Source: a virus
Taxonomy: Duplodnaviria > Heunggongvirae > Uroviricota > Caudoviricetes
Direction: 5' to 3' (one strand)
IMG/VR virus record: IMGVR_UViG_2740892423_000017
DNA length: 4,307 nucleotides
Shown here one piece after another: positions 126-4,307 of this stretch. The notes beneath the pieces were generated by a model. It saw only the letters and a program-made list of their open reading frames with translations. It was not told the DNA's origin and did no database searches. Position 1 is the stretch's first letter; each line of letters begins with the position of its first letter. The translations under genes and the position numbers were made by a program.

Positions 126-467
126 ATGATTACTAAAAATTTCCGACTGAATGCGCTGGCAAATAAGTATGCGTCAGCACTGTATAACCACATTACCTCC
201 ACCAGCGGCGGGGACTATTTCATGATTGATGCGGACGGAGAGGCCGTCCGTGTGGAAATCGTCAATGGAGTAAAAGGCGTTCGCAGCCTGATCGATAGCT
301 ACACACTGGCAGCCATGAAAGTGTTCTACCCGCAGTGGGAAACCGTGGGGATCGAGCTTCTTGATCGTTGCGTCACTAAGGACAGATTGACTGACGTCGG
401 GCGTGAGATATGGCAAAGCATGGTTAATGACATGGGCGCAACTGTAGCGGGAGGTTCTCATGCGTGA
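126..467 (+). CDS. hypothetical small protein (113 aa), first of two small ORFs coupled to the primase-helicase gene
   Basis: ATG at 126 preceded by GAGGATGGAG (115-124) as Shine-Dalgarno. Clean 113-codon frame; its stop overlaps the next start (ATGCGTGA at 460-467). No motif I can recognise. Confidence 0.7.
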   Translation: MITKNFRLNALANKYASALYNHITSTSGGDYFMIDADGEAVRVEIVNGVKGVRSLIDSYTLAAMKVFYPQWETVGIELLDRCVTKDRLTDVGREIWQSMVNDMGATVAGGSHA

Positions 468-831
468 AAATGTAGAAATGGCGCTTAGCTCCGCAATCGG
501 AGAGCAGGTGGCAAAGATTGCTGGTGCTGTGTGGATTCATAACCTTCATTCTACTGGTGAAGAGAAAATGGCAATTCAGACGCCAGAGGGACGCACCATT
601 ACTACATCTCTGAAGCCGTCAGATGTTTGTGATCTGATTTGCGCATTCATGTACCCAGCAATGAGGACTGTCCACGGCGATAAGTGGAAACTTGCGACAA
701 CCGCTGAATTTGATATGTGGCTAAACAATGATGGCATGCTGACTGATTACGGAATAACCAAGTGGCAGATGCTGGTTAGCCATATCGCAAACGCTATAGA
801 CCACGTGGGGTACGGTGATGCGAAACATTGA
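460..831 (+). CDS. hypothetical small protein (123 aa), second small ORF, translationally coupled on both sides
   Basis: ATG at 460 overlaps the upstream stop by 8 nt, with GGGAGG (448-453) as SD. Stop TGA at 829-831 lies 14 nt inside the primase ORF. No recognisable domain. Confidence 0.7.
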   Translation: MRENVEMALSSAIGEQVAKIAGAVWIHNLHSTGEEKMAIQTPEGRTITTSLKPSDVCDLICAFMYPAMRTVHGDKWKLATTAEFDMWLNNDGMLTDYGITKWQMLVSHIANAIDHVGYGDAKH

Positions 832-3274
832 TCTTATCCGTCAGGTTATCAGTGCGTCTGAAAACAACTGGCCTCATGTGCTGGGCTGCCTGAACATAAA
901 TGTCCCTGACTCTCCGCGCCGTCATGCTCCCTGCCCTGCATGTGGTGGAAAAGACCGTTTCAGATTCGACGACAACGGGCGCGGTAGCTTTATCTGCAAC
1001 CAGTGTGGCGCTGGTGACGGGCTGGATTTAATCAAGCGGGTTAACAACTGCGACACCACGGAGGCGGCACAGCTTGCCGCTGACGTGCTGGGTATTGATT
1101 ACCGGGCAGCGCAAACCGACCCGGCGGCAGCGAGCCATAGAAGAGAGCAACTGGAAGCCGACCGCCAGCAGCGTGAGCAGGAGCGCCAGAAACAGGCAGC
1201 AGAGGACGCAGAGCAGCGAAGGGCTACGTTTGCCCATCTGTATGCCGGAATGCGCCAGAGTGCCACACAGGGCGAATCTGATTACCTGCAATCAAAAGGG
1301 CTGACCGGGTTTAACTATCCGGTTATGCCGGATGGTTCGTTATTGCTGGAGCTGGTGGACGAATCCGGCGCAGTGGCAGCAGCGCAAACCATTACACCGC
1401 AGGGAGAGAAGCGACTCCTGACAGGTTCAGCAAAGCGCGGGGCATATCACGCCGTAAACGCGCCAGAATCGCCGCAGAGCGTTTTAATTGCCGAGGGGCT
1501 GGCTACCGCTCTGTCTGTTCACCTGATGCGCCCGGACGCGCTGGCAGTGGCAGCAATTGACGCCGGGAACCTGATCCACGTTGCCGGAGTAATGCGCCGG
1601 AAATACCCGCAGTCGCAAATTATTATCGCCGCAGATAACGACCACCCTACAGCAGCCTCCGAAACCGGAGCCACCAACATCGGGAAGGAGGCCGCAGAGA
1701 AAGCAGCTTTATCCGTGGCTGGCTGGGTATCGCTGCCACCGACTGACAGCAAAGCTGACTGGAACGACTACCACCAGCAACACGGGCTGGAAGTCGCTAC
1801 GGCTGCGATTAACGATTCGATGTACCGGCCGCAGGGGGAATGCGTGAAACCACAACTACAGGCCATTGCTGGCGGTAAATCCCGCCGTAAAGCCGATGTC
1901 GGAGATATTGCACAAATGGCAGCCAGCCAGAAAGCGCGGTTGCTTTCATCTCGATGGGATATGTTGGCGGTTAACCCAGATAGTGGCACTGTTTACTGCT
2001 ACGAATCTGGCGTATGGGTGAAGCTACCAGACAGCGAATTAGAAAGGGTTATGGTGGCAATTTTCGACGAGCACGAAGCCCACTACACCGAAAAGGGGAT
2101 TAAATCGGTTGTCGCAACCATGAAGCTGCAAATACCGGTAATTGGTGAGCGGAGCGGGGATCTGATTGGTTTTGATAACGGCGTTTATGACCTCGCTACG
2201 CAGACGTTTTCCGCCCATTCGCCGGGTAACTGGCTGATGAACCACAATGGGATCACCTACACCCCGCCAGCGCCGGGGGAAAATATTACCACCAGCGCCC
2301 CCAATTTTACCCGTTGGCTGAATCATGCAACGGCTGGCGACCATCATAAGGCCGAGCGTATCAAAGCAGCCTTGTTTATGGTGCTGGCGAAGCGTCACGA
2401 CTGGCAGCTATTCATTGAGATAACTGGCGAGGGCGGCAGTGGGAAATCCGTATTCAGCAGCATAGCCGTATCACTGGCAGGTGAGCACAACACAGCCAGC
2501 GCCAGCATGGGAGCGCTAGACACAGCCAGAGGGCGGGCGCAGCTTGTAGGAAAAAGCCTGATTATCATGCCAGACCAGACCCGCTATGTTGGCGAAGGCG
2601 CAGGGATAAAGGCCATTACAGGCGGCGACCCAGTAGAGATTGATGGTAAGTATGAAAAGCAGTTCACCACCGTGCTAAATGCCGTTGTTCTCGCAACCAA
2701 CAACGAACCAATGACCTTTACCGAGCGCAACGGGGGCATTGCCCGCCGCCGTGTGATATTCCCGTTCGATAATCCGGTATCAGAAGCGGAGAAAGACCCC
2801 GACCTGACAGCGAAGATCTGCCGTGAAATGCCGGTAATTATTCGTCACTTGCTGGCAATGTTTGCCGACCAGAACAAAGCTAAAGCGCTTTTAATCGAGC
2901 AGCGCGATTCCGCAGAGGCGTTGGGCGTTAAGCGCGGGACAGATCCGGTCATAGACATGTGCGCGGCCTTGTATTTTATGAACGAGCCGAAGGGAATGAT
3001 GATGGGGGGAGGAACGTGGGCAGGACAGCCAGAGCCGAGAACTTACCTGTATCACCTTTATTTGGCCTTTATGGAATATCACGGGCTAGGGAAGCCGCTT
3101 TCCGTCAACAAGTTCTCACGGGCGATTAAATCAGCCGCCAGAGAATACAGGGCTAACTACCTGACACGCAGCATTAACGGCAGAGCGCAGACGAACGTTG
3201 GGATCAATGAGTTGGCGGAGGAGTTTATACCGCGAGCATATGGCAGCAGCACCGCCGAAGGGGGTGATGAATAG
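818..3274 (+). CDS. DNA primase-helicase, phage P4 alpha-like (N-terminal Zn-ribbon, TOPRIM primase, D5_N-like region, SF3/P-loop NTPase, C-terminal putative origin-binding region)
   Basis: An 819-codon frame from GTG 815; I prefer ATG 818 (GGGG at 807-810 as SD). Zn-ribbon C-x2-C...C-x2-C (CPACGGKDRFRFDDNGRGSFICNQCG, nt ~932-1006). TOPRIM glutamate in IAEGLATALS (GAG at 1493-1495), resembling the EGYATA primase motif of P4 alpha as I recall it, and acidic cluster IIIAADNDH (~nt 1620-1645). FDNGVYDL motif typical of D5_N/P4-family primase C-terminal domain. Walker A GEGGSGKS (nt 2426-2449) and Walker-B-like LIIMPD. Stop TAG 3272-3274. Confidence 0.93.
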   Translation: MRNIDLIRQVISASENNWPHVLGCLNINVPDSPRRHAPCPACGGKDRFRFDDNGRGSFICNQCGAGDGLDLIKRVNNCDTTEAAQLAADVLGIDYRAAQTDPAAASHRREQLEADRQQREQERQKQAAEDAEQRRATFAHLYAGMRQSATQGESDYLQSKGLTGFNYPVMPDGSLLLELVDESGAVAAAQTITPQGEKRLLTGSAKRGAYHAVNAPESPQSVLIAEGLATALSVHLMRPDALAVAAIDAGNLIHVAGVMRRKYPQSQIIIAADNDHPTAASETGATNIGKEAAEKAALSVAGWVSLPPTDSKADWNDYHQQHGLEVATAAINDSMYRPQGECVKPQLQAIAGGKSRRKADVGDIAQMAASQKARLLSSRWDMLAVNPDSGTVYCYESGVWVKLPDSELERVMVAIFDEHEAHYTEKGIKSVVATMKLQIPVIGERSGDLIGFDNGVYDLATQTFSAHSPGNWLMNHNGITYTPPAPGENITTSAPNFTRWLNHATAGDHHKAERIKAALFMVLAKRHDWQLFIEITGEGGSGKSVFSSIAVSLAGEHNTASASMGALDTARGRAQLVGKSLIIMPDQTRYVGEGAGIKAITGGDPVEIDGKYEKQFTTVLNAVVLATNNEPMTFTERNGGIARRRVIFPFDNPVSEAEKDPDLTAKICREMPVIIRHLLAMFADQNKAKALLIEQRDSAEALGVKRGTDPVIDMCAALYFMNEPKGMMMGGGTWAGQPEPRTYLYHLYLAFMEYHGLGKPLSVNKFSRAIKSAAREYRANYLTRSINGRAQTNVGINELAEEFIPRAYGSSTAEGGDE

Positions 3275-3287
3275 TTTACCCCTGATT

Positions 3288-3306
3288 TATCCCTACCTAT
3301 CCCTAC
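3288..3306. repeat. iteron cluster 1: two direct copies of TATCCCTAC (3288-3296, 3298-3306)
   Basis: Direct reading: ttatccctacctatccctac, copies spaced 10 bp. Confidence 0.8.
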
Positions 3307-3346
3307 AAAGTCATTTAAGGCCAGTAATGACGGGGCTTGTAGACTG

Positions 3347-3392
3347 GTAGGGATATATATATTTATCCCTACATATCCCTACATATCCCTAC
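3347..3392. repeat. iteron cluster 2: inverted copy GTAGGGAT (3347-3354), 10-bp AT-only spacer (3355-3364), then three direct copies of ATATCCCTAC (to 3392) at 10-bp phasing
   Basis: Direct reading: GTAGGGAT-atatatattt-ATCCCTAC forms a perfect 8-bp inverted repeat around a pure A/T spacer, a plausible DNA-unwinding element. It is followed by ATATCCCTAC ATATCCCTAC. Confidence 0.8.
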
Positions 3393-3430
3393 TAAACAAG
3401 AAGCCACGCATAACCGTTTTTTGGTATTTG

Positions 3431-3459
3431 GTAGGGATAGGTAGGGATAAGTAGGGGTA
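3431..3459. repeat. iteron cluster 3: three reverse-orientation copies GTAGGGATA, GTAGGGATA, GTAGGGGTA at 10-bp phasing
   Basis: Direct reading: gtagggatag gtagggataa gtaggggtag. A degenerate forward copy (tgCCCTAC, 3469-3476) follows after an A-rich spacer. Confidence 0.8.
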
Positions 3460-3515
3460 GAAAAACAATGCCCTACCAGCCTGAAAGCCGCGCCACATAT
3501 GGGTTTTATCGATTG

Positions 3516-3533
3516 GTAGGGATTGGTAGGGAT
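3516..3533. repeat. iteron cluster 4: two reverse-orientation copies of TTGGTAGGGAT at 10-bp phasing
   Basis: Direct reading: gattggtagggattggtagggata. Lies about 35 bp upstream of the next ORF, so it may overlap that gene's promoter. Confidence 0.75.
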
Positions 3534-3565
3534 ATTACACCCCCAAAAAGATTCACAGGGGGGGT

Positions 3566-3775
3566 ATGATTCAGCTAAAGGGCGAAAAAATGAACGAACA
3601 TCATAAAAAGCAGATCGAAGTTGTTAGAGAGATTGAAGCGCAGGGGTTCACCGCGCAGGAGGCGGCGGCCTTGTTACTGGCTGGCGAATTATCCCGACTA
3701 AATGACAGCATGGACTACCTGAAACGAGCCGCTGGGAATATTGACGACACGTTATCAAGAATGGAGTGCGCTTAA
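3566..3775 (+). CDS. hypothetical small protein (69 aa from ATG 3566; 61 aa if translation starts at ATG 3590), predicted mostly helical, translationally coupled to the downstream SSB-like gene
   Basis: ATG 3566 sits 1 nt after a G7 run, which is poor SD spacing. The in-frame ATG at 3590 has AAGGG (3578-3582) 7 nt upstream and is the more likely start. Stop TAA 3773-3775 overlaps the next ATG (TAATG). No recognisable motif; the stretch FTAQEAAALLLAGELSRL could be a DNA-binding helix, but that is speculative. Confidence 0.6.
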   Translation: MIQLKGEKMNEHHKKQIEVVREIEAQGFTAQEAAALLLAGELSRLNDSMDYLKRAAGNIDDTLSRMECA

Positions 3776-4209
3776 TGACAGCACAAATTTCAGCATACGG
3801 GCGGCTGGTGGACGAGCCGCAGGTAAAACAGACCAGCAAAGGCACAAGCATGACGCTGGCACGCATGGCGGTATCAGTGCCGTGCCATAACGCAGACGAC
3901 GGGCAGGCGACGCTATGGCTTGCCGTAACTGCCTTTGGCAGACAGGCCGACGCACTGGCAAAGCACCACAAAGGCGACCTTGTGAGCGTGGCGGGTAACA
4001 TGCAGGTGAACCAGTGGACAGGCCAGAACGGCGAAACGCGGCAGGGCTGGCAGGTTATCGCAGACAGCGTAATCAGTGCGCGAACGGTGCGACAGGGAGG
4101 CAAAAATAGCCAGCGGGGACAGGCGACGGACGCGCTGAGACGTGCGCAGCAGTCAACCCGTGATGAATACGACCAGCGCCCACCATTCGACGATGAAGCG
4201 CCATTCTGA
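3775..4209 (+). CDS. ssb: single-stranded DNA-binding protein (SSB-like OB-fold protein, 144 aa) with acidic C-terminal tip ...FDDEAPF
   Basis: ATG 3775 overlaps the upstream stop, with GGAG (3763-3766) 8 nt upstream; the ORF track's 3766 start is a GTG 9 nt further upstream in the same frame. The translation aligns by eye to E. coli SSB: [19 protein letters not shown] vs [40 protein letters not shown] vs [38 protein letters not shown] vs LRTRKWTDQSGQDRY. The tail PPFDDEAPF matches the SSB tip MDFDDDIPF. The linker is much shorter than in E. coli SSB. Confidence 0.85.
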   Translation: [144 protein letters not shown]

Positions 4210-4219
4210 GGGGGGGGGG
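4210..4219. repeat. G10 homopolymer tract in the 15-nt gap between the SSB stop and the next ATG
   Basis: Direct reading: tga-GGGGGGGGGG-tgaac-ATG. It is positioned where the Shine-Dalgarno of the downstream gene should be. Confidence 0.9.
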
Positions 4220-4224
4220 TGAAC

Positions 4225-4307
4225 ATGGTAAACGACAGCAAAGCTGAGGATCTGGAAGCAAAAGGGCTGTACCGACGCGCCGCCGCGCGATGGATGGAAG
4301 TCATGCT
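4225..4307 (+). CDS. 5' end of a gene running off the window (27 codons visible); possible PerC-family small transcriptional regulator
   Basis: ATG 4225 lies 5 nt after the G-run and the frame is open to the window end: MVNDSKAEDLEAKGLYRRAAARWMEVM. The segment AE-LE--GL-RRAA-RW--V matches what I remember as the conserved N-terminal signature of PerC/Pch-like regulators. This is recall, not a search result. Confidence 0.45.
   Translation, partial: MVNDSKAEDLEAKGLYRRAAARWMEVM

Follow-up and report, generated by a model that had tools for sequence, protein, structure and literature searches.

The 4,307-nt stretch of viral DNA analysed here (IMG/VR record IMGVR_UViG_2740892423_000017; hereafter the window, by which the whole stretch is meant) derives from a Gram-negative phage-inducible chromosomal island (GN-PICI), of which it forms the replication module. 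It comprises a primase-helicase gene, an iteron origin, and the first genes of the post-origin operon, which are a small gene whose product belongs to a family designated here A, ssb coding for an SSB (a protein that binds single-stranded DNA), and perC. The small gene (positions 3590–3775, plus strand), defined by alignments, dN/dS analysis, and AlphaFold2 modelling, codes for a 61-aa protein with the predicted form of a two-helix hairpin; it begins ca. 55 nt past the end of the origin and ends within the start codon of ssb (3775–4209, plus strand). The layout pri–ori–small ORF–ssb–perC is standard and already annotated for GN-PICIs, including the model island EcCICFT073. Since EcCICFT073 carries the same layout, the "two-gene cassette downstream of ori" singled out in an earlier note on this DNA is a standard PICI feature; the arrangement is ordinary for GN-PICIs and reveals no new kind of system. 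The small protein itself represents a new, narrow family filling this already known slot.

In the program-made list of open reading frames (ORFs) the small gene is entered as a 69-aa ORF with an ATG start (3566–3775), and, counted from a second in-frame ATG at 3590, it has 61 aa. Comparison with relatives identifies the ATG at 3590 as the conserved start, because M9 of the 69-aa form is the sole methionine invariant among 33 sequences, Shine–Dalgarno-like tracts lie upstream of it, and the ATG at 3566 is included in the extended stem predicted for a C5/G7 hairpin. Most family A relatives begin at M9, and the eight-codon extension is confined to close relatives of the window. The tract read from the window sequence is AAGGG (3578–3582, plus strand), located 7 nt before the start, and in all family A lineages a purine-rich GAGG, GGAG, or AAGGG tract is found 6–9 nt before it. 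The ORF of 61–69 aa that the earlier note placed downstream of ori is therefore a real plus-strand ORF behind a real iteron origin (3285–3535), with the correction that its conserved start lies at 3590 and its length is 61 aa.

The junction of the small gene with ssb is a TAATG stop/start overlap (3773–3777, plus strand), evident from both the sequence and the ORF list: in gcgcTTAATGaca at 3771–3780 the TAA stop occupies 3773–3775 and the ATG 3775–3777, so that base 3775 is common to both codons, as had been noticed before. The TAATG overlap is kept in loci L001, L003, L018–L020, and L026–L038, and an ATGA overlap is found instead in L004, L006, and L021. The junction is not a product of chance, since an identical TTAATGACAGCAC recurs in 13 related loci. 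A GGAG Shine–Dalgarno sequence for ssb (3763–3766, plus strand; read from the sequence), 8 nt before its ATG, is embedded in the last codons of the small gene, AGA ATG GAG, coding for a conserved C-terminal R-M-E; in L008 the same ATGGAG precedes the start of a ProQ gene. The start of ssb is assigned to the ATG at 3775 rather than to the GTG at 3766, because every homologue begins with MTAQI. With the stop/start overlap and the GGAG so placed, translational coupling to ssb is plausible, in support of the co-translation that the earlier note had read from the overlap.

The small gene is a real, strongly conserved protein-coding gene, as judged from nine loci compared by the Nei–Gojobori method, in which dS is saturated (>1) and dN equals 0.11–0.38. 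Wherever dS is computable, omega amounts to 0.05–0.28, and dN in the C-terminal half to 0.04–0.2; as dS is saturated for many pairs, the omega values are a bound and not an estimate. The earlier note had named a lack of synteny or of purifying selection as grounds for giving up its proposal; with the small ORF being a genuine conserved gene, neither ground holds.

The AlphaFold2 model of the small protein, built on an alignment of 22 sequences, has a pLDDT of 95.3 and consists of a helix at residues 3–17, a Gly-containing turn, and a helix at residues 22–60. In the same 22 sequences residues 28–52 (LLLAGELSRLNDSMDYLKRAAGNID) hardly vary on any face of the helix, while the first helix varies. 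The protein contains 11 acidic and 7 basic residues, in accordance with its earlier description as helical and charged. Given this composition and the lack of a helix-turn-helix or other DNA-binding match in Pfam and in a scan of 22 members, it is probably a protein binder rather than a DNA binder. The stop/start overlap and the internal Shine–Dalgarno sequence would also suit a mere translational leader delivering ribosomes to ssb, or an ORF that is no gene at all, but this is hardly credible and already contradicted by the strong purifying selection acting on the amino acids while synonymous sites are saturated. Nor do the confident fold, the presence of the small gene without ssb in L007, and the existence of ssb with its own Shine–Dalgarno sequence and without any leader ORF agree with it.

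The difficulty of assigning the small protein to a family, acknowledged in the earlier note, persists: Pfam, PHROGs, NCBIfam, and PADLOC give no match above threshold, and searches of the PDB and of folds no significant one. Two readings of parts of the protein were rejected, a UBA-like N-terminal half (UBA_HOIP at 16.2 bits with a cut-off of 22.4, in only 6 of 22 members) and a RuvA domain III helix-loop-helix (Foldseek E = 2.7 over 24 columns). Among 5.8 billion proteins searched there were 33 relatives, all unnamed or described as "hypothetical" and all from Enterobacteriaceae (Phytobacter, Enterobacter, Klebsiella, and Pluralibacter); further family A loci are found in one Shimwellia, among species-representative genomes, and on one E. 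coli chromosome. Eight hits, and no distant relatives, came from a profile search in 1.84 billion representative proteins; the two long ones are repeat proteins whose match is confined to the common "GLSRxEAL" helix-loop-helix. With tblastn, none of 50,697 phage records contains family A, and plasmid records give one hit, from Klebsiella. This is a very small family, confined to satellite islands in Enterobacteriaceae, and its sample comprises few, mostly closely related loci.

In other PICIs the slot between the origin and ssb is filled differently. In EcCICFT073, located on the CFT073 chromosome, the primase gene is followed by a 288-nt gap, an 85-aa ORF, an SSB gene overlapping it by ATGA, a PerC gene, and then capsid genes (small ORF, ssb, and perC at NC_004431.1, 1384284–1385207). 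It has in common with the window the primase, the iteron origin, a small ORF with its stop overlapping the ssb start, an SSB of the same clade (65–73% identity), and PerC, and it shares the int–alpA–…–pri backbone with the island from which the window derives. The two differ in the type of overlap (ATGA versus TAATG), in the downstream capsid genes, none of which is present in the window's island, and in the slot protein itself, which in EcCICFT073 has 85 aa, belongs to phrog_1231 (designated here family B), and is not detectably homologous to family A. Homology of A and B was rejected at an hhalign probability of 0.2%, with no PHROGs hit for the window protein, and homology of A to a third, 100-aa slot protein (family C) because BLASTP produced no alignment.

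Family B (81–85 aa; L017 10285–10542, i.e., EcCICFT073, and L011–L013 1259–1504) precedes the PICI-type ssb in 1617 (ca. 30%) of the 5426 complete E. coli genomes and family A in one of them. Family C occupies the slot in L002, a deleted remnant of C is left in L015, and nothing in L014. The PICI-specific SSB clade is present in 1804 of the 5426 genomes, and in about one third of all complete E. coli genomes the satellite SSB comes together with a slot protein of some kind. Family B takes the same place as A, that of the first gene after ori overlapping ssb, and is likewise modelled as a helical hairpin (helices 4–36 and 45–74, with a pLDDT of only 63). Its conservation pattern is also that of A, the C-terminal half being invariant (HPELISAFMTTAAANFATLTEREIAEAEQVTTINVK) and the basic N-terminus and the first helix variable.

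The small gene lies directly 5′ of ssb in seven of the ten family A lineages, in five of them with an overlap. This position, the TAATG junction conserved in 13 loci, and the fact that two other unrelated small helical proteins overlap the same SSB clade, and so could be analogous partners, would fit a partner or modulator of SSB, binding the SSB of the island or of the host and tuning its binding of single-stranded DNA, its loading, or its recruitment of partners, with the overlap setting the stoichiometry. However, overlaps are the norm in the island, where 9 of 15 same-strand junctions overlap (the 1-nt overlap of the AlpA gene with its neighbour included), so the overlap alone says little on co-function. 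The next gene is ssb with a 1-nt overlap in the window, L001, L003, and relatives, with a 4-nt overlap in L004, L006, and L021, and after 53 nt in L005 or ca. 16 nt in L024. In L008–L010 a ProQ gene follows 3 nt after the small gene and ssb lies further on; in L007 the next gene codes for a 633-aa transglycosylase/tape-measure-like protein and there is no ssb within 8 kb. L014, in turn, has ssb without an upstream small gene.

The sequences of the two genes diverge independently as well. The DNA identity of the window and L001 is ca. 97% over 3140–3799 and then ca. 68%, the drop being located ca. 25 nt into ssb. In twelve further close relatives (L027–L038) the primase C-terminus is 94–95% and the small protein 93–95% identical to that of the window, the SSB only 54–73%, and TTAATGACAGCAC is kept in all. 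A recombination seam is thus visible in L001 and L027–L038 at ca. 3800, in ssb codons 8–10, and the conserved codons there seem to be the crossover site. L008 and L010 have SSBs identical in 90% and replicases in 30%, and L004 and L006 SSBs identical in 97% and N-terminal halves of A in 41%. The divergence of the N-terminal half of A is uncorrelated with that of SSB (Spearman rho of 0.14), and the window SSB is closer to the SSBs following family B or C (73–78%) than to those following other A members (56–71%). From these comparisons we conclude that the replicase, the family A gene, and SSB reassort independently, and that A and SSB are not a co-evolving pair. The probable co-function with SSB that the earlier note derived from the overlap is not borne out by the frequency of overlaps in the island, the ProQ neighbours or missing ssb, the unrelated slot proteins, the reassortment of alleles, and the low correlation. 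A role of the small protein as an SSB partner is for the same reasons unlikely; the charges tell against it too, A being acidic and the SSB tip likewise.

In all loci, and in each of the ten lineages, the small gene comes first after the replicase and ori, 160–360 nt past the replicase stop. The block of 97% identity shared by the window and L001 covers the 3′ end of the primase gene, ori, and A, and close relatives conserve A along with the C-terminus of the primase. All this would be consistent with an origin or replicase accessory, i.e., a modulator of copy number or initiation similar to Cnr of P4, acting on alpha, or, functionally, to Rop of ColE1. P4 Cnr is a precedent for a small protein modulating replication. 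Moreover, as in P4, a P4-family primase-helicase is followed by iterons, in L007 even by P4-type TGTTCACC repeats. In P4, however, cnr lies upstream of alpha and not, as the family A gene, after the iterons, and the island has the PICI set (AlpA, AntA, Ash, and PerC) instead of the P4 sid, psu, and delta. Family A is found with three replicase architectures and differing iterons, including TGTTCACC in L007. In that locus the P4-type TGTTCACC iterons are located directly 5′ of the small gene (ca. 7955–8000) and the replicase has D5_N/DUF5906 only, without the primase domains, so that the same small gene is here combined with another type of origin. We regard the accessory role as improbable. 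A related idea, that the protein is an adaptor whose variable N-terminal helix tracks the replicase and whose invariant helix tracks the host, was rejected, as the N-terminal half of A correlates weakly with the replicase (Spearman rho of 0.29, with non-independent pairs) and there are counter-examples.

The small gene leads an operon with genes for PerC or for ProQ/FinO-domain proteins, and small helical proteins are often anti-sigma or adaptor factors. A small protein regulating the post-origin operon at the transcriptional or post-transcriptional level, e.g., a co-factor of PerC or ProQ, might be expected in such a place, but we find this very doubtful, as PerC and ProQ are each missing from several A-bearing islands, no DNA- or RNA-binding signature was found in Pfam, NCBIfam, and the scan of 22 members, and the protein is net acidic. 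The ProQ/FinO-domain genes themselves, located beside the small gene or ssb (L008 8187–8639, L010 2405–2854, L005 8711–9298, and L021 4440–4949), suggest an RNA-chaperone function in the same post-origin operon.

Post-origin operons of PICIs hold small proteins that bind helper proteins (PMC6739421, PMC6092414), and the location of the family A gene resembles that of genes for interference and packaging in PICIs (RppA/c1503 of EcCICFT073; Ppi, Cpm, and Pti of SaPIs). Homology to Rpp (redirecting phage packaging) was rejected, since a profile search of all PDB sequences, including those of RppC (6HLK, 6HN7), gave chance-level hits, none of them Rpp. Rpp also differs in having a TerS-like DNA-binding domain and a helix forming a four-helix bundle, whereas family A is modelled with only two helices and without a winged helix.

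The reading that we favour, as quite possible though short of probable, is that the small protein may be an autonomous accessory effector binding a conserved host or helper protein. Upon induction, transcription would read through the origin from upstream promoters into the small gene; such read-through is probable because scans for promoter and terminator consensus sequences from primase to perC gave nothing usable. The small protein and SSB would be made early and together, by coupled translation, and the former would then act independently, as a small effector that binds another protein; with its invariant helix in the C-terminal part (residues 28–52) it would dock onto a partner that stays the same from island to island. 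The partner is postulated to be a conserved replication or recombination protein of the host or helper phage, and not the SSB or primase of the island. It would be something that the islands share, because the helix is constant across islands differing in the replicase, iterons, SSB allele, and downstream genes, and a replication or recombination protein is plausible in view of the timing and the neighbourhood. With the small gene inherited independently, its overlap with ssb would reflect operon compaction and coupling of expression, and is not evidence of a two-subunit machine. In EcCICFT073 the rep gene together with ori suffices to drive plasmid replication (PMC6092414), and therefore the slot protein and SSB are accessory in that island.

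Several points weigh against an autonomous effector. Its partner is a postulate, and conservation on all faces of the helix could instead result from homo-oligomerisation. In nine of the ten lineages ssb is found at most three genes downstream, and the small protein may have a loose functional link with the SSB of the island or of the host. The route of transcription is deduced solely from the absence of consensus signals. Moreover, the post-origin genes of EcCICFT073, when expressed singly, do not block lambda, except for c1503/rppA (PMC6739421). A simple anti-helper role is therefore disfavoured, at any rate for the counterpart from family B; the result covers plaque formation and not family A.

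The autonomous effector may be one case of a more general arrangement. It is conceivable, though rather unlikely, that the slot proteins (A, phrog_1231, and at least one more) are interchangeable, non-homologous helical effectors, co-expressed with the satellite SSB and each docking onto a conserved replication or recombination protein of the host or helper, for example the helicase loader, the SSB interactome, or RecBCD. If so, replication of the satellite would be favoured over that of the host or helper, which would constitute a so far undescribed layer of satellite–helper conflict. Should the target of the small protein be a host or helper replication protein, a new mechanism of interference or takeover would be added to satellite biology. 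Family A offers a clean handle on the function of the slot, being 61 aa long, confidently modelled as two helices, and endowed with an invariant helix of 25 residues.

The SSB encoded downstream of the small gene (3775–4209) is a PICI-type protein of 144 aa, with an OB fold, a short linker, and an acidic tip …PPFDDEAPF. Its recognition as an SSB in the earlier note is confirmed by the matches of its sequence to Pfam PF00436 (3.7e-17; 62.7 bits with a cut-off of 26, covering the OB fold), NCBIfam TIGR00621 (62.4 bits with a cut-off of 53.95), phrog_44 (1.8e-37), and SSB chains in the PDB (down to 1e-10), together with the alignment of homologues. The tip is of the acidic (D/E)xPF type, through which SSBs recruit partner proteins, and is conserved in most members of the clade. 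The protein resembles E. coli SSB in the OB fold and in the C-terminal acidic tip ending with PF, of the E. coli DDDIPF type, but is only 26% identical to it and has a very short linker (144 aa in total).

Upstream of the origin lies the island replicase, an 819-aa primase-helicase of the P4 type (815–3274, plus strand) with the Pfam domains Zn_Ribbon_Prim, Toprim_3, D5_N, DUF5906, and Pox_D5 and a match to the DNA primase family phrog_2249 (8e-149). Two overlapping small ORFs (126–467 and 460–831, plus strand; from the ORF list) are located directly 5′ of it; one of them belongs to phrog_37628 (6.5e-50), of unknown function, the other has no family, and their placement recalls that of the accessory genes upstream of alpha in P4. 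The origin, an iteron field of ca. 250 bp (3285–3535), was delimited by a search for direct repeat families and inverted pairs. It contains TATCCCTAC iterons at 3288–3306 and 3364–3392 and inverted GTAGGGATA iterons at 3347–3355, 3431–3459, and 3515–3534, spaced by 10 bp and flanking an AT-rich core near 3355–3363.

At the right edge of the origin a C5…G7 inverted repeat (3540–3564, plus strand) is predicted to form a hairpin (RNA fold of –17.8 kcal/mol, z = –2.26), and in relatives G runs occur at the matching place. Runs of G bracket the small gene and ssb, the first being the G7 at 3558–3564, which pairs with the C5 at 3540–3544, and the second a G10 homopolymer read between the ssb stop and the perC start (4210–4219, plus strand). 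The length of the first run varies from G6 to G9 across relatives, regardless of the slot gene downstream. These runs could serve as a slippage-prone expression switch, could be a structure of the origin edge, or could mean nothing. An Rfam scan gave chance matches only. Next in the same operon comes the gene of a PerC-family regulator, of which the window holds the 5′ part, i.e., the first 27 codons (4225–4307, plus strand; Pfam PerC, 1.1e-10); the full protein in L018 has 103 aa. An antisense ORF of 218 aa (3648–4304, minus strand; from the ORF list) extends across ssb and part of the small gene and is regarded as a side effect of the GC-rich strand coding for SSB, as the profile matches all back the plus-strand genes.

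The exact small protein was traced to contigs L018–L020, in which the island, of ca. 12 kb, is flanked by yicC and yicG/ligB and consists, in this order, of int, a gene for a 312-aa protein, AlpA, a 145-aa protein, AntA, DUF4222, Ash, several small genes, the primase, ori, the small gene, SSB, PerC, and PRiA4_ORF3. In GN-PICIs int, alpA, and pri are co-directional and ori, composed of two iteron sets around an AT-rich region, is located 3′ of pri (PMC6092414); ori also co-localises with the genes of Primase, SSB, and DUF5906 (PMC10111431). The island conforms to this description, with the replicase gene directly followed by an origin of two iteron sets around an AT-rich region and, in L018–L020, with the int, alpA, and pri backbone in one direction, a size in the expected range of about 10–15 kb, and a location at a chromosomal att site. 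Some family A islands carry genes for large proteins of 633–1019 aa (L007 8452–10353, L004 10160–13219, and L006 11262–14315). The one from L007 matches tape-measure/lytic-transglycosylase families of PHROGs (phrog_7694, phrog_2276), the one from L006 has a weak Pfam TMP_2 hit, and the one from L004 has no family hit on record; such large proteins are an unusual cargo for capsid-less satellites.
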